Source: Escherichia phage ULINTec7
Reading direction: 5' to 3' (one strand)
DNA length: 46,142 bases
Sequence record: MZ997841.1
Both the position numbers and the translations under genes were made by a program. Below are positions 3,612 to 39,728 of the stretch, piece by piece; the stretch's first letter is position 1, and every line of letters starts with the position of its first letter. The notes below the pieces were generated by a model. It did not search any database. It was not told where the DNA came from and worked only from the letters and a program-made list of their open reading frames with translations.

Positions 3612-6239
3612 ATGCAAGACCTACACGCTATTCAACTTCAACTTGAAGAAGAAATGTTTAACGGCGGTATCCGTCGCTTTGAAGCGGACCAACAACGCCA
3701 GATTGCATCCGGTAATGAATCAGACACGGCATGGAATCGCCGCTTATTGTCCGAGTTAATCGCGCCAATGGCTGAAGGTATTCAGGCATACAAGGAAGAG
3801 TATGAAGGTAAAAGAGGCCGTGCACCACGTGCATTAGCTTTCATTAACTGCGTAGGGAATGAAGTAGCAGCATATATCACCATGAAAATCGTTATGGATA
3901 TGCTGAATACAGACGTTACCTTACAAGCCATCGCTATGAATGTAGCCGACCGAATCGAGGACCAAGTACGTTTTAGCAAGCTGGAAGGTCACGCAGCTAA
4001 GTACTTTGAGAAAGTGAAGAAGTCGCTTAAGGCTAGCAAGACTAAATCTTATCGTCATGCGCACAACGTAGCGGTAGTAGCTGAGAAGTCTGTTGCTGAC
4101 CGTGACGCGGATTTCTCCCGTTGGGAGGCATGGCCTAAAGACACCTTGTTGCAAATAGGCATGACCTTGCTAGAAATCTTGGAGAATAGCGTATTCTTCA
4201 ATGGTCAACCTGTCTTCCTTCGTACCTTGCGCACTAACGGCGGAAAGCATGGTGTTTACTATTTACAGACCAGTGAACATGTTGGCGAGTGGATAACTGC
4301 ATTTAAGGAACATGTAGCGCAGCTCAGCCCTGCCTATGCACCTTGCGTTATACCTCCCCGCCCTTGGGTATCACCTTTTAACGGCGGTTTCCACACTGAG
4401 AAAGTAGCAAGCCGTATTCGTCTGGTAAAAGGAAACCGCGAACACGTCCGCAAGCTGACCAAAAAGCAAATGCCAGCGGTTTACAAGGCTGTTAACGCTT
4501 TGCAGGCGACTAAGTGGCAGGTTAATAAAGAAGTTTTGCAGGTAGTAGAGGACGTTATCCGTCTCGACCTTGGTTATGGTGTACCTTCCTTTAAACCACT
4601 CATCGACCGCGAAAACAAACCAGCTAATCCGGTGCCGCTAGAATTTCAGCACCTGCGAGGCCGTGAACTGAAAGAGATGCTAACGCCGGAACAGTGGCAA
4701 TCCTTCATTAACTGGAAAGGTGAATGCACCAAGCTGTACACCGCAGAAACTAAGCGTGGCAGCAAGTCGGCGGCTACGGTCCGCATGGTTGGTCAGGCCC
4801 GTAAATATAGCCAGTTCGACGCAATCTACTTCGTGTATGCACTGGACAGCCGCAGCCGTGTATATGCGCAATCTAGCACGCTCTCACCGCAATCAAACGA
4901 CTTAGGCAAGGCACTCCTACGGTTTACCGAAGGGCAGCGCCTTGATAGCTCTGAGGCGCTTAAATGGTTTTTGGTGAACGGGGCTAATAACTGGGGTTGG
5001 GATAAGAAAACTTTCGACGTGCGCACCGCTAACGTGTTAGATGGTGAATTCCAAGACATGTGCCGCGACATTGCAGCGGATCCTCTGACCTTCACTCAAT
5101 GGGTAAATGCCGACTCCCCTTACGGCTTCCTTGCTTGGTGCTTTGAATATGCGCGTTATCTGGATGCACTGGATGAAGGCACGCAAGACCAATTCATGAC
5201 GCACCTCCCAGTCCATCAAGATGGTAGTTGTTCTGGTATCCAGCACTACAGTGCTATGCTACGCGATGCAGTAGGTGCGAAAGCGGTAAACCTTAAGCCC
5301 TCTGACTCCCCTCAAGATATTTATGGTGCCGTTGCGCAGGTAGTAATTCAGAAGAATTATGCATACATGAATGCAGAGGATGCGGAAACCTTCACTTCTG
5401 GCAGCGTGACTTTAACAGGTGCAGAACTTCGTAGCATGGCTAGTGCGTGGGATATGATAGGAATCACTCGCGGCCTGACCAAAAAGCCTGTAATGACACT
5501 ACCTTATGGCAGCACACGTCTAACCTGCCGTGAATCAGTGATTGATTATATCGTTGATTTGGAAGAAAAAGAGGCCCAACGGGCTATTGCGGAAGGGCGT
5601 ACCGCCAATCCTGTACATCCTTTTGATAATGACCGCAAAGACAGCCTGACACCTAGCGCAGCTTATAACTATATGACAGCTTTAATCTGGCCTTCTATTT
5701 CGGAAGTGGTTAAAGCTCCTATAGTGGCAATGAAAATGATTCGTCAGCTTGCACGTTTCGCAGCTAAAAGAAACGAAGGCTTAGAATATCCCTTACCAAC
5801 TGGCTTCATCTTGCAACAAAAGATAATGGCTACCGATATGCTCCGCGTATCCACTTGCTTGATGGGTGAAATCAAGATGAGTCTCCAGATTGAAACAGAT
5901 GTAGTTGATGAAACGGCAATGATGGGTGCGGCTGCTCCTAACTTCGTCCATGGTCACGATGCTAGCCACCTGATTCTGACTGTATGTGACCTAGTGGATA
6001 AAGGTATTACATCCATTGCAGTCATCCATGATTCTTTCGGTACTCATGCAGGACGTACCGCAGACCTGCGGGATAGCTTAAGGGAAGAAATGGTTAAGAT
6101 GTATCAAAACCATAATGCCCTGCAAAACCTGCTAGATGTGCACGAAGAGCGTTGGTTAGTAGACACCGGAATCCAAGTACCAGAGCAAGGAGAGTTTGAC
6201 CTTAACGAAATCTTAGTTTCAGACTATTGTTTCGCATAA
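3612..6239 (+). CDS. Single-subunit DNA-dependent RNA polymerase (T7/SP6 type)
   Basis: 875 aa with [16 protein letters not shown] and [13 protein letters not shown] motifs matching the T7 RNAP catalytic region. Confidence 0.97.
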
Positions 6240-6313
6240 TATTAATAGGCCATTCCTTAGGGAGTGGCCTTTTTCTTTACCTACTACCTGTAACATTTCA
6301 TTAACATAAAAGT

Positions 6314-6329
6314 GTCTCACATGTGAGAC
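6314..6329. promoter_or_regulatory. Conserved palindrome GTCTCACATGTGAGAC, copy 1
   Basis: Perfect 16-bp palindrome immediately 5' of the promoter at 6331. Confidence 0.6.
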
Positions 6330-6330
6330 T

Positions 6331-6352
6331 TATTTACCGGACACTATAGGAT
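6331..6352 (+). promoter_or_regulatory. Phage-RNAP promoter
   Basis: TATTTACCGGACACTATAGGATAG matches the consensus. Confidence 0.7.
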
Positions 6353-6500
6353 AGCCGTCGGAGACGGGAAAGAAAGGGAAGATAAAGGATATAAAGGAAG
6401 TAATAGGTATTAAAGGTTATATAGGTTATCTAGGAATACCTAGGAATACCTATTACCTTCTTCCTTCCTCTTATTACCACTTAGAGGAAGGGCAGACCTA
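6353..6500. promoter_or_regulatory. AT-rich dyad-symmetric region, candidate primary replication origin
   Basis: Purine-rich arm at 6366-6411 and complementary pyrimidine-rich arm at 6445-6478, with direct repeat TAGGAATACC x2 at 6431-6450. Lies between two promoter copies just downstream of the RNAP gene, the position of the T7 primary origin. Confidence 0.45.
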
Positions 6501-6503
6501 GGT

Positions 6504-6520
6504 TGTCTCACATGTGAGAC
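6504..6520. promoter_or_regulatory. Conserved palindrome TGTCTCACATGTGAGAC, copy 2
   Basis: Same palindrome as at 6314, followed by a promoter-like sequence. Confidence 0.6.
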
Positions 6521-6522
6521 TT

Positions 6523-6547
6523 CGTATTTACCGGACAGTATAGATAA
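6523..6547 (+). promoter_or_regulatory. Phage-promoter-like sequence (degenerate: ACAGTATAGATAAG)
   Basis: GTATTTACCGGACAGTATAGATAAG differs from the consensus in the conserved CACTATAGAAG core. Confidence 0.35.
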
Positions 6548-6573
6548 GACTAACTTACTTTGGAGATTTAACC

Positions 6574-6711
6574 ATGCGTAACGTAGAAAAGATTACCCGT
6601 AGAAGCCGTCATGAGTGCGATGTAGATATTAGCACCCTTAAGAATCGTGCCAAAAAGTGGGTACAACAACGCGGCGGTGTCAATCGTAATATGAAACGTA
6701 ATTGGAACTAA
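6574..6711 (+). CDS. Small basic protein (45 aa), T7 gp1.1-like
   Basis: Hand-translated MRNVEKITRRSRHECDVDISTLKNRAKKWVQQRGGVNRNMKRNWN resembles recalled T7 gp1.1 (MRNFEKMTKRSNRN...). Confidence 0.5.
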   Translation: MRNVEKITRRSRHECDVDISTLKNRAKKWVQQRGGVNRNMKRNWN

Positions 6712-6721
6712 AGGGCAGACC

Positions 6722-7875
6722 ATGGCTATTATTAATAACATCCCATGTCCTCAATGTCAGAAGAATGGACACGATAAATCAGGCAACCACCTTATGATAT
6801 TCGAGGATGGTGCTGGGTACTGTAACCGTGGTCACTTCCATGATAATGGCAGACCTTACTACCATAAGCCTGAAGGGGGCATCGAGATAACCGAGTTGCC
6901 TATTACTGGCAATATCAAATATACACCTTCCCAGTTTAAAGAGATGGAGAAGGAAGGGAAGATTAGCGACCCTAAGCTACGCGCCATCGCACTTGGTGGT
7001 ATGCGTATGAAAGACCGTTGGGAGGTTATGAATGAGCAAGAAAGGGCAGACCAAGAAACAGAGTGGAAACTTGATGTTGAATGGTTCCTCACGCTTAAGC
7101 GTAAGAATCTTGTTTCCCGACACATTCGCGGCGACATTTGCGCATTGTATGATGTACGGGTCGGACACGATGAAGAAGGTAGAGTCTCACGGCATTACTA
7201 TCCACGCTTCGAAAAATGTGAGCTAGTAGGCGCTAAGTGTCGCACATTACCTAAAGACTTTAAGTTTGGTCATTTAGGTAAACTATTTGGTATGCAAGAT
7301 CTTTTCGGTATGAATACTTTGTCTCACGTGTTAGACAAGGGAAGACGAAAGGATTGCTTGCTTATTGTCGGCGGCGAACTGGATGCACTAGCAGCACAGC
7401 AAATGCTCCTTGATTCTGCCAAGGGTACTAAGTGGGAAGGCCAGCCTTACCATGTATGGTCTGTCAATAAAGGTGAGTCTTGCCTTGAAGAGATAGTACA
7501 GAACCGTGAACACATCGCCCAATTTAAGAAGATTATATGGGGTTTTGATGGAGATGAGGTAGGGCAGAAGCAGAATCAGCAAGCGGCTCGCCTGTTTCCT
7601 GGCAAATCCTATATCCTTGAGTACCCTTCTGGTTGCAAAGATGCCAACAAGGCATTGATGGCTGGCAAGGCTAAAGAGTTTGTTGATGCATGGTTTAATG
7701 CCAAGTCATCTGATGAAGTCTTTGGTAGCCAGATTAAATCTATCGCATCTCAAAGGGATAAGCTCAAGGCTGCACGTCCAGAGCAAGGACTATCATGGCC
7801 TTGGCCTAAGCTGAACAAGGTAACGCTAGGTATTCGTAAGAACCAACTTATCATTGTAGGCGCAGGCTCTGGCGT
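6722..7875 (+). CDS. DNA primase-helicase, exon 1 (zinc ribbon, TOPRIM, start of helicase Walker A)
   Basis: CPQC...C..GHFH zinc ribbon and LLIVGGELDALAAQQ TOPRIM resemble T7 gp4. The ORF continues to ...LIIVGAGSGV and then runs into a stop at 7895-7897 within inserted sequence; the proposed exon ends at 7875. Confidence 0.7.
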
Positions 7876-8662
7876 TAACATTAGCGCCGCCATGTAGTAA
7901 TACATGGGCAATAATCGTGTGAACTCAGGGGAAGACTAGAACAGTTAATCCTGAGCCAAGCTAGGCACACCTCAAATTCAAAGGAGGTGTTATGCAATTT
8001 AAAGAAGTACCAGATCACAGTAATTATATTTGTTATGAGAATGGCACGGTTGTTAATCGTAAGACTGGAAAGGTCTTGAAAGAAGATACAACTAACCGAG
8101 GTTATAAGCGGATTACAGTAAGCAAGGGCAACAAGGTAACACGTTGGAGTGTGCACCGTTTAGTTGCTTTACTGTTTATCCCTAACCCTCATAATTATGA
8201 AACTGTTAATCACATATCGGGAGATAAGACGGATAACTCTGTTAGTAATCTTGAGTGGATGAGCCAAGAACAGAACCAAGCCCATGCTAAATATACAGGA
8301 CTGTGTCCTAAAGGTGAGGCTGTTGGCACTAATAAGTTCAAAGAGGCAACTATTCATCAAGTGTGCAAGCTAATAGAGAAAGGTTTATCTCGCGGTGAAA
8401 TTATGAAAGCAACGAGCATCTCTAAAGCAACCTTTGATGACATTCGTAGAAGGAAGACTTGGAAGCACGTATCTTGTTCATATAAATGGTGACAATCTGG
8501 TGTGCCTAGAAGGTGCAACGACTATCCCGAAAGGGAGTACAGCCAAGCGGCTGGAAGCGCACGACACCCATCGTGGGTGATGATATAGTCTGGTCTATAT
8601 GGGGACATATAGCAGTTCATAAGAGAACGGGCGTGGCTTAGCGAACCACGTCGAACATAACG
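7876..8662 (+). mobile_element. Putative group I intron carrying an HNH homing endonuclease ORF, inserted in the helicase Walker A codons
   Basis: The 5' exon ends in U (7875) and the insert ends in G (8662). Exon 3' end GGCGU can pair with intron GCGCC at 7884-7888 (P1 with a U.G wobble). The downstream frame opens right after a stop at 8658-8660 with GKTEF and no start codon. Joining gives the contiguous P-loop GAGSGVGKTEF. Confidence 0.6.
7992..8492 (+). CDS. HNH homing endonuclease (intron-encoded)
   Basis: 166 aa with HRLVALLFIPNP...VNHISGDKTDNSVSNLEW, a typical HNH/AP2-type motif; AGGAGG SD upstream; a paralog of the ORF at 10976. Confidence 0.85.
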   Translation: MQFKEVPDHSNYICYENGTVVNRKTGKVLKEDTTNRGYKRITVSKGNKVTRWSVHRLVALLFIPNPHNYETVNHISGDKTDNSVSNLEWMSQEQNQAHAKYTGLCPKGEAVGTNKFKEATIHQVCKLIEKGLSRGEIMKATSISKATFDDIRRRKTWKHVSCSYKW

Positions 8663-9497
8663 AGGTAAGACTGAGTTCCTTCGTGAAGTAGTTAAGCACC
8701 TCATTGAAGAACACGGTGAATCTGTAGGCATCATTTCTACAGAAGACCCGATGGTCAAGGTGTCCCGTGCTTTTATCGGCAAGTGGATTGATAAGCGTAT
8801 TGAGTTACCGCCAACCAACGACCCGAAAGAAGATGGATACCGTGAGGTGTTCGACTACACCGAGGAAGAAGCTAACGCCGCCATTGATTATGTAGCTGAT
8901 ACAGGTAAGCTGTTTGTGGCTGACCTAGAGGGTGACTATTCGATGGAAAAGGTAGAGCAAACTTGCCTAGAGTTTGAGGCTATGGGCATTTCTAATATCA
9001 TCATTGATAACTTAACGGGGATTAAATTAGATGAGCGTGCTTTTGGTGGGAAGGTTGGTGCACTTGATGAATGCGTCAAGCGGATTGGTACTATCAAAGA
9101 CCGACACCCGGTTACTATATTCCTTGTATCACACCTTACACGTCCTCCGGCAAACCGTACCCAACATGAAGAAGGTGGCGAAGTTATCCTTTCTGACTTC
9201 CGAGGCTCAGGCGCTATCGGATTCTGGGCATCTTACGCCTTGGGGATTGAGCGTAATACAAGAGCTGAAACGCTTGACGAAAGGACTACCACGTACATCT
9301 CATGTGTCAAAGACCGCGACCAAGGTATCTGGACTGGAACCAAGGTCATGCTTAAGGGTGACATTCAAACCGGACGTTTAATGGAACCACAAGCCCGTAC
9401 TAAGTCATTTGATACAGGTGAAGCAAGGCAACAAGAAGTGCCGGATTTACCGGACACTATAGAAGAGACAACCTTTGACGATGAACAGGAGTTTTAA
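8663..9497 (+). CDS. DNA primase-helicase, exon 2 (helicase RecA-like domain)
   Basis: Frame reads GKTEFLREVV... from 8663, through the ORF-track ATG at 8751, to DDEQEF. FLVSHLTRP and SDFRGSGAIGF...LGIERN resemble T7 gp4 helicase motifs. Exon 1 plus exon 2 is 1989 nt, a 662-aa product. Confidence 0.7.
9445..9467 (+). promoter_or_regulatory. Phage-RNAP promoter inside the helicase 3' coding region
   Basis: ATTTACCGGACACTATAGAAGAG matches the consensus. Confidence 0.65.
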
Positions 9498-9671: not shown

Positions 9672-9695
9672 GCTTGTCTCACATGTGAGACAGGC
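9672..9695. promoter_or_regulatory. Conserved palindromic hairpin GCTTGTCTCACATGTGAGACAGGC, copy 3
   Basis: Extended 11-bp stem around the 16-bp core, located at a gene end. Confidence 0.6.
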
Positions 9696-11455: not shown

Positions 11456-13988
11456 TTGGAAAGAATTTGGAAAGAATCGCATACTTGTCATGGATGCTGA
11501 AAGTAAAGGTTTACTTGATGCTATCCGATATGGACACCGTGAAGATGTGCATATCATTTGCTGTATGGATTTGCTTACTACCGAGGAGTTTCTCTTCTTT
11601 GACCCGTATGAGATGCGTGACCCTGAAGCAAGAGAACGCCTGAAGGAATGGGAAGGTCATCAAGATGGAACCTTGGTTGACGGTGTTAACTTCCTGAAGC
11701 ACTGTGAGGCTATTGTGTCGCAGAACTTCCTAGGGTATGACGGTCTTCTCTTTGAGAAAGCATTCCCTGATATTTGGAAAGGCTTTAACTATACCGAGAA
11801 GCGCGGTAAGGGCAGACTCCGTGCTGACCTGTGTCCTATCCGTGTTGTAGATACGCTGGTGATGAGTCGTCTGCTAAACCCAGATAGACGCCTTCCTCCG
11901 CAAGCATATGCCAAAGGCATGGGTAACGTCGCCCCTCACTCAATTGAGGCGCACGGCATCCGTATAGGCCGCTATAAACCAGAGAATGAGGACTGGTCTA
12001 AACTAACTGACCACATGGTTCACCGTGTACGTGAAGACGTGGCAATTGGTCGTGACCTTTTCCTATGGCTTTACAACGGAGAGTGGACGGAGCACAAACG
12101 CCGTGGCGTGAATAAACGTACTGGCCTAGGTATTGAGACAGCCTTCCACATGGAGTCCATTGTGGCGCTGGAGATGAGCCGTCAGGCCGAGCGCGGGTTC
12201 CGTCTGGACATCGACAAGGCTTTGTCCCGATGCGAAGAATTGGACGCTAAGATTGACGAGACAGTCGCAGCGTTCCGCCCTCACATGCCTATGCGTATCA
12301 AGTCTAAACCTTTTAAACCGGAAGAAAAGAATGAAGTATGCCAACGCGCAAATGAGTATGGAGCTAGCAACAATATACCTACTGTCCTTGACCCCTCACA
12401 CTTTCTTCATGCCGAGAGACGAGGAGATCGCAAGACAGTATGGAGTGTCACTACTAAGTCTGGTGATTGGTCGGCTAGTGTCAAGAAAGACTTTCCTCAC
12501 CTTAGAGGAAACCGTAATGACACGCCAAGCATCAAGTGGATTGGCGCTTACTCGCCTGTTACTTTCGAAGAGATTCCCTTGGGTAACAGGGATACAGTTA
12601 AGCAAGTGCTCTATGATTATGGATGGAAAGGTGTTGAATTTAACGATACCGAGCAAGCGCATCTCGATGAGCACGGAGTGTTACCCAAACCTTGGAGTGG
12701 TAAGATAAATGAAAAGTCCCTTACTTTATGGCAAGAAAGAGCCGCACGTGAAGGTAAAACAGTCCCTGATTGGTGCTTGGGTATCGCTGCATGGTACATA
12801 CTCGTATCCCGTCGTGGTCAGATACTCAACCGTGGTGACGTTGAAGCCTTCAACGAGAAGGGAACGTGGCCCTCGCAGGCTGGTGTACGAAAGTGTCGCG
12901 GCCTTGTACCTGTAGCATTCAACAAGGAGCTAGGAATCAATGCGCAGCAATACTACGAGAGGTACGGATATTGGCCTACGTCTGACAAAGATGACGGAGA
13001 GTGGCGTGTTCCAGCTGTTGCTATTAGTATTGGCACTTCTACGTTCCGTATGCGTCATCGTAACGTGGTTAATATTCCTGCCCGTGGCTTGTATCCTTTA
13101 CGTGATTTATTCATAGCAGGGAAAGGCAAGCTAATCCTTGGTTGTGACGGTGCAGGTCTTGAACTGCGTGTCCTGTCTCACTTCATGAATGACCCTGAGT
13201 ACCAAGAGATTGTACTGCACGGTGATATTCATACGCATAACCAGATGAAGGCTGGTCTTCCTAAGCGTGATATGGCGAAGACGTTTATATACGCCTTCCT
13301 CTATGGCTCTGGTATAGCCAACCTTGCAGCAGTATGTGGTGTTACTGAGGAGGAAATGAAGGAAGTTGTGGCAAGATTCGAGATTGAACTGCCGTCTCTT
13401 GCACGTCTTCGTGAGAATGTTATCGCACAAGGTAACAAGTTTGGCTACCTGCAAGCACCTGATGGGCATTGGGGTCGCATCCGCATGTCTGGTGGTGAAC
13501 TTAAAGAGCACACTATGCTTAACGTATTACTCCAGATGACTGGCTCTTTGTGTATGAAATATGCATTAGTAAAGGCATTTGCAGTAATGCGCAAGGAAGG
13601 TGTAGCCTTGGATGCTATGGGAAGCCCTTGTGGTGTGGCTAACGTCCACGATGAAATCCAGATGGAAGTTCCTGAAGAAGAGGTCTTGTACCTTAACTAT
13701 GACCTACCTTTCACCTTAGAAGGGTTTGAAACAGAGAAGGCTGCTGTGAAAGCAGTGTTCGATGCAGAAGAGAAACGTGTTCATGTGGATTCTGAAGGAC
13801 GTATGTGGTCTGCTGCAAACCTCGTTAGTGTTGATGCTGATGCTGGTGTACTTCATTGTCAGCGCCGTTATCACCGTGCTGGGCATATCATTGCCGACGC
13901 CATGACTTGGGCTGGTCAGTATCTGAAGATGCGTTGCCCGATGGCAGGAGAATATAAGATTGGCACAAGTTGGAAGGAAACACACTGA
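11442..13988 (+). CDS. DNA polymerase (family A, T7 gp5-like)
   Basis: N-terminal exo motif ILVMDAESKG resembles T7 MIVSDIEAN; GCDGAGLELRVLSHF, GDIHTHNQ...AKTFIYAFLYG and HDEIQ polymerase motifs. Start is uncertain between 11442 and 11490. Confidence 0.93.
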   Translation: MLDVDWKEFGKNRILVMDAESKGLLDAIRYGHREDVHIICCMDLLTTEEFLFFDPYEMRDPEARERLKEWEGHQDGTLVDGVNFLKHCEAIVSQNFLGYDGLLFEKAFPDIWKGFNYTEKRGKGRLRADLCPIRVVDTLVMSRLLNPDRRLPPQAYAKGMGNVAPHSIEAHGIRIGRYKPENEDWSKLTDHMVHRVREDVAIGRDLFLWLYNGEWTEHKRRGVNKRTGLGIETAFHMESIVALEMSRQAERGFRLDIDKALSRCEELDAKIDETVAAFRPHMPMRIKSKPFKPEEKNEVCQRANEYGASNNIPTVLDPSHFLHAERRGDRKTVWSVTTKSGDWSASVKKDFPHLRGNRNDTPSIKWIGAYSPVTFEEIPLGNRDTVKQVLYDYGWKGVEFNDTEQAHLDEHGVLPKPWSGKINEKSLTLWQERAAREGKTVPDWCLGIAAWYILVSRRGQILNRGDVEAFNEKGTWPSQAGVRKCRGLVPVAFNKELGINAQQYYERYGYWPTSDKDDGEWRVPAVAISIGTSTFRMRHRNVVNIPARGLYPLRDLFIAGKGKLILGCDGAGLELRVLSHFMNDPEYQEIVLHGDIHTHNQMKAGLPKRDMAKTFIYAFLYGSGIANLAAVCGVTEEEMKEVVARFEIELPSLARLRENVIAQGNKFGYLQAPDGHWGRIRMSGGELKEHTMLNVLLQMTGSLCMKYALVKAFAVMRKEGVALDAMGSPCGVANVHDEIQMEVPEEEVLYLNYDLPFTLEGFETEKAAVKAVFDAEEKRVHVDSEGRMWSAANLVSVDADAGVLHCQRRYHRAGHIIADAMTWAGQYLKMRCPMAGEYKIGTSWKETH

Positions 13989-14259: not shown

Positions 14260-14520
14260 ATGATTAAATCACAGAAGTATTTCTCAACTAAAGATCGTAA
14301 GGTAGGTTTTGAAATCAAAGTTTGGGAAGACGGACACATTACTATTATTTATGAAGGTAAAGGTTCTAATGGTATGATGCTACGCAGATGCCGTACATTC
14401 ACAAAGAAAGAATGTATGCATATGTCTGAATGCATGTTTCTTTACATCATTGCTGATGATATTAAAGGTATGAAGCTAATTGTATCTCTACCTTTAATAC
14501 CTAAATCTTTGTTAGGTTGA
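14260..14520 (+). CDS. Hypothetical protein (86 aa)
   Basis: ORF with GGAG SD. Confidence 0.5.
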   Translation: MIKSQKYFSTKDRKVGFEIKVWEDGHITIIYEGKGSNGMMLRRCRTFTKKECMHMSECMFLYIIADDIKGMKLIVSLPLIPKSLLG

Positions 14521-14543
14521 TTTACTGGACACTATAGAAGGAA
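14521..14543 (+). promoter_or_regulatory. Phage-RNAP promoter
   Basis: TTTACTGGACACTATAGAAGGAA. Confidence 0.75.
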
Positions 14544-14606
14544 AGCCTAGACAATCTAGGTTTATAAGGTAGTATAGGTAATTAAGTAAATATAGGAGAT
14601 ATAAAC

Positions 14607-37672: not shown

Positions 37673-39570
37673 TGGCTAAGGCAAGAGAATCACAAGCGGA
37701 GGCTCTTGCCAGATGGGAGATGCTACAGGAGTTACAGCAGACCTTTCCCTATACAGCGGAAGGTTTGCTTCTCTTTGCAGATACAGTTATCCATAACTTG
37801 ATTGCAGGCAACCCTCATCTGATTCGTATGCAGGCTGATATCTTGAAGTTCCTATTCTACGGACATAAGTATCGCCTCATCGAAGCGCCTCGTGGTATCG
37901 CTAAGACAACACTATCAGCAATCTATACGGTATTCCGTATTATCCACGAACCGCATAAGCGTATCATGGTTGTATCCCAAAACGCTAAGCGAGCAGAGGA
38001 AATCGCTGGTTGGGTGGTGAAAATCTTCCGTGGCCTAGACTTCCTTGAGTTTATGCTGCCGGATATCTACGCAGGGGACCGTGCATCCGTTAAAGCATTT
38101 GAGATTCATTACACCCTACGTGGTAGTGATAAGTCTCCCTCTGTATCCTGTTACTCAATCGAAGCAGGTATGCAGGGTGCTCGTGCTGATATTATTCTAG
38201 CGGATGACGTAGAGTCGATGCAGAATGCTCGTACGGCAGCGGGCCGTGCCTTGCTTGAGGAACTGACTAAGGAGTTTGAATCTATCAACCAGTTTGGGGA
38301 TATCATTTACCTTGGTACGCCTCAGAACGTAAACTCTATCTACAACAACCTACCTGCTCGTGGCTACTCTGTTCGTATCTGGACTGCACGTTACCCCTCA
38401 GTGGAGCAGGAGCAATGCTATGGTGACTTCCTTGCACCTATGATTGTGCAGGATATGAAGGACAACCCCGCACTTCGCTCTGGTTATGGGTTGGATGGTA
38501 ATAGTGGTGCACCTTGTGCCCCTGAAATGTATGATGATGAAGTCCTGATTGAGAAGGAAATCTCTCAGGGTGCAGCTAAGTTCCAGCTTCAGTTCATGCT
38601 TAACACTCGCATGATGGATGCAGACCGCTACCCACTACGCCTGAACAACCTCATCTTCACCTCATTTGGTACAGAGGAAGTCCCTGTGATGCCTACGTGG
38701 AGCAATGACTCCATCAACATCATCGGTGATGCACCGAAGTATGGCAATAAGCCTACAGACTTCATGTATAGACCTGTGGCTCGCCCGTATGAATGGGGTG
38801 CTGTTACACGCAAGATTATGTATATTGACCCTGCTGGTGGTGGTAAGAATGGTGACGAAACAGGCGTGGCTATAGTCTTTCTGCACGGCACATTCATTTA
38901 CGTGTATCAGTGCTTCGGTGTGCCAGGCGGATACCGTGAATCGTCCCTGAATCGCATTGTGCAGGCCGCAAAGCAGGCGGGTGTTAAAGAGGTATTCATT
39001 GAGAAGAACTTTGGTCATGGCGCGTTTGAGGCCGTTATAAAGCCATACTTTGAACGAGAGTGGCCTGTAACTCTGGAAGAGGATTACGCCACAGGACAGA
39101 AAGAGTTGCGTATCATTGAGACGCTGGAGCCACTCATGGCGGCGCACAGGCTCATCTTCAATGCCGAGATGGTCAAGTCTGACCTTGAGTCAGTACAGCA
39201 CTATCCACTTGAACTACGCATGTCCTACAGCCTTTTCAATCAAATGTCGAACATCACGATTGAGAAGAACAGCCTCCGGCACGATGACCGCTTAGACGCT
39301 CTGTATGGCGCTATACGGCAATTAACTTCTCAGATAGACTATGACGAGGTTACACGGATTAATCGCCTCAGAGCGCAGGAGATGCGCGATTACATCCATG
39401 CTATGAACACACCTCACCTCCGTAGGGCGATGCTCTATGGAGATTATGGCACTGAGCGAAGAGTAACCAACACTTCCGTGGCTATGCAGCAAAGAGTGTA
39501 CGGTCAGAATTACAGGAGTAAATCGGCCAACCGAAATACACTTTCTGCAAGGATTTCAAGGACTTATTAA
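37669..39570 (+). CDS. Terminase large subunit
   Basis: 633 aa; ATPase and nuclease region with IILADDVES; position and size match T7 gp19. Confidence 0.85.
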   Translation: MMAKARESQAEALARWEMLQELQQTFPYTAEGLLLFADTVIHNLIAGNPHLIRMQADILKFLFYGHKYRLIEAPRGIAKTTLSAIYTVFRIIHEPHKRIMVVSQNAKRAEEIAGWVVKIFRGLDFLEFMLPDIYAGDRASVKAFEIHYTLRGSDKSPSVSCYSIEAGMQGARADIILADDVESMQNARTAAGRALLEELTKEFESINQFGDIIYLGTPQNVNSIYNNLPARGYSVRIWTARYPSVEQEQCYGDFLAPMIVQDMKDNPALRSGYGLDGNSGAPCAPEMYDDEVLIEKEISQGAAKFQLQFMLNTRMMDADRYPLRLNNLIFTSFGTEEVPVMPTWSNDSINIIGDAPKYGNKPTDFMYRPVARPYEWGAVTRKIMYIDPAGGGKNGDETGVAIVFLHGTFIYVYQCFGVPGGYRESSLNRIVQAAKQAGVKEVFIEKNFGHGAFEAVIKPYFEREWPVTLEEDYATGQKELRIIETLEPLMAAHRLIFNAEMVKSDLESVQHYPLELRMSYSLFNQMSNITIEKNSLRHDDRLDALYGAIRQLTSQIDYDEVTRINRLRAQEMRDYIHAMNTPHLRRAMLYGDYGTERRVTNTSVAMQQRVYGQNYRSKSANRNTLSARISRTY

Positions 39571-39590
39571 TTACTGGACACTATAGAAGG
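39567..39590 (+). promoter_or_regulatory. Phage-RNAP promoter
   Basis: TTAATTACTGGACACTATAGAAGG. Confidence 0.8.
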
Positions 39591-39690
39591 AAGGCCCAGA
39601 TAATAAGAGAAATAACAAGGATAATATAGGTTAACCTAGGTTATATAGGTATGCCTTAGTATGGGTGTACTCCTGTACACCCTATTCCTT
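39591..39690. promoter_or_regulatory. AT-rich repeat region related to the 6353-6500 origin-like element
   Basis: Shares the 12-mer GGTTATATAGGT (39639-39650 and 6415-6426) plus ATAGGTTA and CCTAGG motifs; palindrome GGGTGTAC-TCCT-GTACACCC at 39663-39682. Confidence 0.4.
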
Positions 39691-39728
39691 ACTTCCTTAC
39701 TATACTCACATAATAGGAGAGAGAGAGA

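Follow-up and report, generated by a model that had tools for sequence, protein, structure and literature searches.

A phased ATAGGTA array and a candidate RNA-processing hairpin between two phage promoters, in the SP6-group region corresponding by position to T7 gene 1/gene 1.1

Phages of the SP6, K1E and K1-5 types are used in therapy and are the source of SP6 RNA polymerase, and no mapped replication origin or RNA-processing signal was found for them in the literature. We analysed the intergenic region that follows the phage RNA polymerase gene of Escherichia phage ULINTec7, in particular a segment at positions 6353-6500 of record MZ997841.1; the whole stretch of 46,142 nucleotides (nt) is referred to as the window. 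About 100 phage records were matched by the region in a sequence search, the closest being K1E-like Vectrevirus genomes (98-99% identity), followed by K1-5 and K1E (~94%), with SP6-like Salmonella and Klebsiella phages at 68-74% identity to the region, and this profile places the window among the SP6-group (Molineuxvirinae) genomes, as K1E/K1-5-like. After a terminator, a palindrome, a promoter (P1), the segment, a second palindrome and a second promoter (P2) follow one another, and a gene of the gp1.1 family begins ~30 nt further on. The segment contains a phased array of ATAGGTA repeats, part of which is predicted to pair with a downstream pyrimidine tract. This array is the main feature, and it is absent from an earlier note on the same DNA, which had described an AT-rich dyad between palindrome-plus-promoter units as a candidate primary replication origin; the purine-rich arm of that dyad is the repeat array itself. 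The features of the region are listed below, with lengths in nt, base pairs (bp) or amino acids (aa).

3612-6239, plus strand: phage single-subunit RNA polymerase gene, 875 aa, from the list of open reading frames (ORFs); left boundary of the intergenic region
6247-6279, plus strand: predicted intrinsic terminator for host RNA polymerase, from a terminator scan; stem 10 bp, loop 4 nt, T-run
6278-6286, minus strand: lone inverted unit upstream of P1, TAGTAGGTA on the minus strand, from a TA[AG]TAGGTA search
6314-6329, no strand assigned: palindrome 1, GTCTCACATGTGAGAC, member of an 8-copy family
6332-6354, plus strand: phage promoter P1, ATTTACCGGACACTATAGGATAG, zero mismatches to the pattern; predicted +1 at G6349
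6355-6367, plus strand: 5' stem-loop of the P1 transcript, CCGTC-GGA-GACGG, from predicted folds; +7 to +19
6370-6451, plus strand: array of eight ~9.6-nt units, consensus ..ATAGGTA.., from a phased-AGG scan
6394-6462, plus strand: long imperfect hairpin (the dyad), predicted; 5 bp, 1x1 mismatch, 12 bp, inner 4-bp stem
6431-6450, plus strand: tandem TAGGAATACC x2, recent 10-bp duplication of one unit
6463-6491, plus strand: second hairpin, CCTTCCTCT / AGAGGAAGG, predicted; 9 bp (6463-6471 / 6483-6491), 11-nt loop
6505-6520, no strand assigned: palindrome 2, identical to palindrome 1
6526-6548, plus strand: variant phage promoter P2, ATTTACCGGACAGTATAGATAAG, C to G at -5; predicted +1 at G6543
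6574-6711, plus strand: gene of a gp1.1-family small basic protein, 45 aa, from Pfam PF08200 and BLASTP against T7 gp1.1

The AGG trinucleotides of the array start at 6375, 6386, 6395, 6405, 6414, 6423, 6432 and 6442, with spacings of 11, 9, 10, 9, 9, 9 and 10 nt. Such an 8-unit chain was found once in the genome and no other trinucleotide or site forms as long a chain at this spacing, the longest simulated chain being 5 in 200 genome-wide runs and 6 in 2000 runs at local composition. The C-less run of 64 nt at 6366-6429 is the longest of the genome, the G-less run of 39 nt at 6445-6483 the second-longest, and the most purine-rich 60-nt windows of the genome (82%) fall in the region. The AT-richness attributed to the segment is moderate (60.8% vs 54.9% for the genome, 87th percentile of 148-nt windows), and it is the array stretch alone, taken over the 63 nt after P1 (6368-6430), that reaches 71% AT, with 75% purine on the non-template strand.

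A phased array of 3-8 units follows P1 in every SP6-group relative examined. Six units are present in SP6, BP12B, UAB78, Kenya-K30 and the Klebsiella phages, seven in K1-5 and K1E, eight in SE29 and the Proteus phage, about eight in Erwinia phage Era103, and three or four in more distant metagenomic lineages. VLCpiA2b also has six, and since these contain C, the purine bias is not the conserved property; by direct count, the AT content is about 56% in the VLCpiA2b array and about 44% in the Era103 unit. What recurs in a logo of 61 units from 8 lineages is a core of 7 nt, A-T-A-G-G-T-A, with T after AGG in 70%. The array changes in size by whole units, numbering 7, 8 or 9 in Vectrevirus, the window having one more than K1-5 and T205P4 one extra. 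The tandem TAGGAATACC reported in the earlier note is indeed present, but as a lineage-specific duplication restricted to the window, KAW1A4500 and ULINTec4, with a single copy in K1-5, K1E and all other genera. The pattern TA[AG]TAGGTA occurs four times in the genome, three of them in this region, and single inverted units flank P1, at 6278 and 6447; the stretch CCTAYTACCTGTAAC at the upstream one is kept in relatives.

The array is not confined to this locus, as two further promoter-associated versions were found in the window.

39565-39728, plus strand: second module, after the terminase large-subunit gene; promoter (+1 at 39586), 4 phased units, GC hairpin, G-less tract
14516-14606, plus strand: mini version; promoter (+1 at 14537), 5' hairpin, AGG at 14558, 14567, 14576 and 14594, gene start directly after

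The exact 12-mer GGTTATATAGGT is present in the genome only at 6415 and 39639, thus once in each of the two larger modules. The second module has a consensus promoter, AGG at 39618, 39628, 39638 and 39647, a GC hairpin at 39663-39682 and the longest G-less tract of the genome (40 nt, 39676-39715), and it is kept in about 100 phages. The two longest AGG chains of the SP6 genome are likewise post-terminase (7 units) and post-polymerase (6 units). Era103 has 22 units after its post-terminase promoter, in a tandem repeat whose 27-bp period comprises three 9-nt units, and the hairpin there is a compensated variant of the one that follows its post-polymerase array. The mini version follows the promoter at 14527 in the window, and SP6 presents the same layout after its promoter at 12542. 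The recurring design is a promoter, an optional 5' hairpin, the ATAGGTA array, a hairpin, a pyrimidine tract, a ribosome-binding site and a gene. Over all 148-nt windows of the genome, AT content peaks (71%) at 14456-14603, on the promoter-plus-mini-array and not on the segment flagged in the earlier note.

Recent 10-bp duplications and unit gains (the window relative to K1-5, and T205P4), as well as a TATATA expansion in K44PH129C1, are what would be seen if the repeats had no function and had arisen neutrally, by replication slippage in a non-coding spacer. This explanation is very improbable, as the array keeps both loci, its orientation and its phase from Vectrevirus to Era103, whose RNA polymerases share 61% identity at the C-terminus, and is kept where the surrounding sequence has diverged beyond alignment.

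The units could alternatively be double-stranded DNA sites bound head-to-tail by a sequence-specific phage or host protein, either as an operator or roadblock governing transcription that runs from P1 towards the replication genes and from the post-terminase promoter, or as replication iterons. The conserved 7-nt core of these direct repeats over the 61 units, the changes by whole units (from 7, 8 and 9 in Vectrevirus to 22 in Era103) and the lone inverted units on either side of P1 are in line with such sites. Iteron arrays of plasmid and lambdoid origins and the decamer operators of OmpR/PhoB-type regulators similarly combine direct repeats, a conserved core, near-helical spacing and an adjoining dyad. 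The eight units provide the at least three direct repeats with a conserved core of an iteron-type array, but not spacing in helical register: the units are 9-10 bp long and their period is 9.0-9.6 bp (mean ~9.6 bp here, exactly 9 bp in the expanded Era103 array, hence 27 bp per three units), off the ~10.5-bp helical repeat. Unlike iterons and OmpR/PhoB operators, they are also always transcribed and in one orientation. The curvature of the array in a wedge model lies at the 93rd percentile (a trace of low weight), which is not exceptional; a static bend therefore does not explain the phasing, a point counted in favour of protein sites, and intrinsic DNA curvature was rejected as its cause on this low-weight trace. 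That the units always lie in the sense direction after a promoter would suit an RNA element as well as a DNA-binding array, and no candidate binding protein was identified. We regard DNA sites of this kind as unlikely.

The transcribed strand of the segment is predicted to fold extensively. The middle pair of the 5' stem-loop covaries among relatives (G:C, A:T, C:G, T:A). The dyad, with its purine and pyrimidine arms, was confirmed at its reported place and is non-random by its folds and its C-less and G-less runs; only the 5' arm string given for it, GGTAATAGGTATT, is absent, the base before GTAATAGG being A, one base off. Its arms (6394-6411 / 6445-6462) are 18 nt long and 89% complementary, with an exactly complementary core of 12 bp formed by GTAATAGGTATT (6400) and AATACCTATTAC (6445), and a small internal loop is predicted between the 12-bp and 4-bp parts of the helix. 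The 3' arm is an inverted repeat unit located in the G-less pyrimidine tract 6445-6483 and pairs with units 3-4 of the array. Folded as DNA, 6353-6500 gives z = -4.2 with none of 200 shuffles as stable, and folded as RNA, 6349-6500 gives z = -2.3 with one of 200 as stable.

An equivalent long hairpin is predicted in all 7 clades, namely in the window, SP6, BP12B, SE29, the Klebsiella and Proteus phages, VLCpiA2b and Era103, with differing arm sequences:

Vectrevirus: TAATAGGTATT
SP6: TAATAGGAAG
Klebsiella phages: AATAAAGGGAAG
SE29: GGAGGTAAT
Proteus phage: AGGTAATAAGGTA
VLCpiA2b: TATAGGTATACC
Era103: AGGTAGGTTAGG

The plus-strand RNA fold is more stable than the minus-strand one in 16/19 close relatives. 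In the Proteus phage the plus strand is favoured by 13 kcal/mol and in Era103 by 9 kcal/mol, each fold having 6 G·U pairs, and 4 G·U pairs are read directly from the fold in the 12-bp helix of Era103. The dyad thus depends on G·U pairs in these two distant genera and is more stable there as plus-strand RNA, which speaks for a hairpin in RNA and against a DNA cruciform. Most SP6-like relatives also have a predicted second hairpin similar to that of the window. The string AAGGGCAGACC is found both after the second hairpin (6487-6497) and just before the primase start codon (6712-6722), which may be due to chance, and similar GGGCAGA strings are present in relatives, in terminators and in gene 1.1.

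A known RNA family was rejected for the region, since an Rfam scan of 6100-6800 with E up to 10 returned only sub-threshold chance matches and no family. A hidden small gene was also rejected, as the segment holds only ORFs of 23-33 aa, none of them conserved, and the records of Koku, SE29 and Mt1B1_P10 annotate ORFs at this place that other relatives do not share. The '220-bp insertion with an ORF' of ULINTec4 (L002 1575-1790) is a ~220-nt poly-T within the tail of the terminator, which the record annotates as a protein of 94 aa, and was set aside as a likely assembly artefact.

The array could itself act as RNA, in the form of an abundant transcript presenting 6-22 UAGGUA motifs between 5' and 3' hairpins, which would recruit or sequester 30S subunits or a host RNA-binding protein; AGGU resembles part of the Shine-Dalgarno sequence. 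The constancy of the design from promoter to ribosome-binding site at three loci, the expansion to 22 units in Era103 and the unpaired state of the first units in the predicted folds are compatible with this role, against which stand the lack of an Rfam match, a core that is AGGU (T after AGG in 70%) and not the GGA of CsrA-type sponges, a 9-10-nt period without known meaning for single-stranded RNA, and the fact that every step of it has to be inferred. A CsrB/RsmZ sponge RNA in particular was rejected, the GGA motif being unconserved, the core AGGT and no Rfam family matching, and the array core corresponds to no known protein or RNA motif among those checked through Rfam and the unit logo. 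An RNA role of the array appears quite unlikely.

P1 and P2 are predicted rightward promoters for the phage RNA polymerase, the former with the consensus core GGACACTATAG, common to 9 other promoters in the window, and the latter with a conserved single-base variant, ACAGTATAGATAAG at 6535, so that the degenerate core noticed earlier in the second promoter is real. Every Vectrevirus relative, and the Proteus phage as well, keeps the G at -5 of P2; the variant is instead a T at -1 in Zindervirus and the Klebsiella phages, and metagenomic lineages show other off-consensus changes, apart from one (L054) that is consensus-like (comparison of L003-L010, L022 and L052-L054). Era103 has no second promoter at this locus. 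P2 being off-consensus in most lineages and at differing positions, its sequence suggests selection for a weakened promoter and not decay.

Each promoter is preceded by the palindrome GTCTCACATGTGAGAC, at 6314 and 6505, and the two palindrome-plus-promoter units therefore bracket the segment as had been described. This palindrome and its close variants have 8 matches in the window (585, 6314, 6505, 7321, 9676, 10859, 16496 and 32868) vs 0.26 expected. Nine copies of GTC(C/T)AAC..GTTGGAC were found in SP6 (L027), at 493, 6093, 6264, 7071, 8547, 9383, 14255, 17752 and 30569, in positions corresponding to those of the window, and the place of palindrome 1 is occupied by GTCCAACGTGTTGGAC in SP6 and the Klebsiella phages. 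The SP6 family has different half-sites at corresponding positions, and both half-sites thus changed together between genera. One copy lies inside the primase-helicase gene, and at 9676, 10859 and 32868, all intergenic, the flanks lengthen the stem with G·U pairs, followed by a U-rich tail. The palindromes resemble RNA hairpins of the terminator, pause or processing kind; alternatively, they may be sites recognised by a co-evolving factor.

In K1E, K1-5 and SP6, the homologs of the 875-aa ORF carry the annotation RNA polymerase. The terminator (6247-6270 plus T-run) lies directly 3' of the polymerase stop codon, the KAW1A4500 record carries an annotated terminator at the same place, and a hairpin with a T-run is kept after the polymerase gene in all relatives with differing stem sequences. 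The 45-aa protein matches Pfam PF08200 'Bacteriophage 1.1 protein' (Phage_1_1) at 22.2 bits for a cut-off of 21, and aligns by BLASTP with T7 gp1.1 over 8/11 N-terminal identities, with the shared pattern MRN.EK.T.RS.

The order in the T7 record is gene 1, phi1.1A (5848), phi1.1B (5923) and gene 1.1 (6007); in T7, the R1.1 RNase III hairpin lies between phi1.1A and phi1.1B and the AT-rich origin segment after phi1.1B. As in T7, the region has the RNA polymerase gene on one side, the gp1.1-family gene on the other and a hairpin-forming segment between two rightward phage promoters, and ACCTTCTTCC, in the 3' arm of the dyad, also occurs in the T7 sequence between phi1.1A and phi1.1B. The T7-like position put forward in the earlier note is thus borne out. 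With a gp1.1-family gene downstream and two rightward promoters in the T7 order, the region is the positional counterpart of the T7 gene 1/1.1 region, and by this analogy it can be considered the SP6-group counterpart of that control region. Since the T7 element between the promoters is R1.1, and the AT-rich segment comes after phi1.1B, the dyad corresponds by position to R1.1.

Several features differ from T7. The host early terminator is directly after the polymerase gene here, that of T7 being at 7588; the two promoter starts are 194 bp apart vs 75 bp in T7; a 16-nt palindrome stands before each promoter; and there is no AT-rich stretch after the second promoter, only about 30 nt separating the P2 start from the gene, whereas in T7 the stretch between the phi1.1B start and the start codon of gene 1.1 is, by our own count, 71% AT. 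The phased array has no equivalent in T7, neither at phi1.1A/B nor at phiOR. An array shared with the T7 origins was rejected, as the only phased arrays detected by an unbiased scan of the T7 genome are the SRL repeats at its left end; after phi1.1B, TAAG recurs at irregular intervals. The T7 SRL/SRR repeats (CCTAAAG arrays beside the terminal repeat) are also short, regularly spaced repeats in a T7-group genome, but the ATAGGTA arrays differ from them in motif, in period (~12 bp for SRL/SRR) and in place, being internal and always after a promoter. The window has an SRL counterpart of its own, with CTTAGT x10, ~12 bp apart, at 312-440, close to the left end and upstream of the early promoters (T7 SRL, 175-340). 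The second module, directly after the terminase large-subunit gene, recalls T7 phiOR, the promoter after gene 19, with the difference that the SP6 group has about 6 kilobases (kb) more genes before the right end.

Placed first in our ranking, with a probability of about 0.45, is the reading of the segment as a leader in the P1 transcript, comprising a 5' stabilising stem-loop and an R1.1-like processing or protecting hairpin. The transcript (+1 at 6349) would carry in order the 5' stem-loop, ATAGGTA units every 9-10 nt, a two-turn imperfect hairpin and the second hairpin, the two-turn hairpin being made by the downstream pyrimidine tract, whose inverted unit would fold back on units 3-4. The 5' stem-loop would stabilise the P1 transcript, and the hairpins would act in RNA by defining and protecting transcript ends, most likely via RNase III, as T7 R1.1; both RNase III cleavage and the stabilising role are what we infer from the model. 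In its favour are the T7-like position, with a host terminator followed by two phage promoters and a gp1.1-family gene, the covarying 5' stem-loop, the long hairpin predicted in all clades with differing arms, its stability as plus-strand RNA and the non-coding nature of the segment. Substrates of E. coli RNase III usually span two turns of helix, and internal loops in them lead to 3' hairpins that protect the RNA (PMC1540722); the predicted dyad helix has about two turns and an internal loop. Its location is also that of an R1.1-type hairpin, intergenic, within phage transcripts and between phi1.1A-like and phi1.1B-like promoters.

Several observations weigh against the leader with a processing hairpin. 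Such a hairpin has no need of 6-8 regularly spaced units, so that the repeat array is left unexplained, and the 39.6-kb module has an array without a long hairpin, its fold being unremarkable. The minus strand folds better than the plus strand in VLCpiA2b, K44PH129C1 and T205P4. Against dinucleotide shuffles, the RNA folds reach modest z-scores (-1 to -2.5), since tracts of purines and of pyrimidines are prone to pair. Finally, column-by-column covariation of the long hairpin was not obtained across genera with MAFFT and RNAalifold, as its low-complexity arms do not align; the cross-genus alignment recovers the 5' stem-loop, the palindrome and fragments only.

An origin role is a separate matter, plausible by position and compatible with the RNA hairpin, as both coexist in T7. 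Replication of T7 is primed by transcripts from the phi1.1A/phi1.1B promoters, and from these homologous promoters the region is the best positional candidate for an origin too. In a T7-type primary origin, the P1/P2 transcript would stay annealed in the repeat region as an R-loop and be extended by the phage DNA polymerase, the primase-helicase being loaded on the displaced plus strand, and the array and the dyad would be origin elements at the DNA level. The array after P1, 71% AT, 75% purine on the non-template strand and without C over 64 nt, is in line with this, as hybrids of purine-rich RNA with DNA are very stable. Transcript-primed (R-loop) origins such as ColE1 RNA II and T4 ori(uvsY)/ori(34) likewise have a promoter ahead of a segment to which the transcript could remain hybridised; the non-template strand is purine-rich and C-less here, a bias that is not kept in VLCpiA2b and Era103. 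The region occupies the same intergenic position as the T7 primary origin with its tandem promoters (PMC8373140; PMC12796468), and the second promoter-plus-array module stands at the position of phiOR, a secondary origin of T7 (PMC8373140).

Opposed to an origin are the lack of such an array at T7's own origins, the unconserved AT-richness and purine bias (Era103 unit ~44% AT, C-containing VLCpiA2b units), the G·U dependence of the dyad in two genera, the missing second promoter of Era103, the absence of an AT-rich segment after P2 and the lineage-specific nature of the TAGGAATACC tandem. The GC skew is ~0.05 left of about 6 kb vs ~0.11 right, which could mark an origin, but the cumulative skew is monotonic without turning point, and mapping of an origin by GC skew was abandoned since there is no minimum, only a slope change near 6-7 kb, where the early genes give way to later ones. 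According to a secondary source (PMC4837284), moreover, Dobbins et al. 2004 proposed that the SP6 origin lies at the DNA polymerase gene. A T7-type origin in this segment therefore seems possible but doubtful, and the dyad as an origin element, as proposed in the earlier note, is unsupported, its position being that of R1.1.

The repeat array is not well explained by any of these readings. It may represent a new kind of iterated element in the T7 supergroup that recruits or sequesters a specific factor, either for loading of the phage replisome at transcript-primed origins or as a plentiful RNA that would serve 30S subunits or a host RNA-binding protein as decoy or landing pad, a suggestion that we regard as tentative and rather unlikely. 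Each array has a consensus promoter of its own, at two conserved loci that match those of T7 phi1.1 and phiOR, and the number of units is 4-8 in the window and reaches 22 in Era103.

The primase-helicase gene of the window (6722-9497) is split in two: a Toprim part (6722-7897) comes first, then an HNH/HTH homing-endonuclease ORF (7992-8492), then a DnaB_C helicase part (8751-9497). It is one uninterrupted 1989-bp gene in K1-5 and mutPK1A2. In relatives, homing-endonuclease genes have repeatedly inserted in or beside the intergenic region, as seen in PST_H2 (L019 537-1040), UAB78 (L009 893-1303), BP12B (L008 1004-1450) and Mt1B1_P10 (L015, from 759). That of PST_H2 lies between the long hairpin and palindrome 2, and this spacing is thus not critical.

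No description of the palindrome, the array or an SP6-group origin was found in the searchable literature, although the original SP6 and K1-5 genome papers may describe parts of them. What is new relative to T7 is a conserved iterated element without T7 equivalent in an otherwise T7-like control region. The conserved sub-elements are now pinned down as the 5' stem-loop, the phased ATAGGTA array, the long hairpin and the off-consensus second promoter, and this list provides a short set of precise mutants for origin function, RNA processing and replication-gene expression. The array, which recurs after the terminase gene and has 22 copies there in the Erwinia phage, is a well-conserved and easily testable element.

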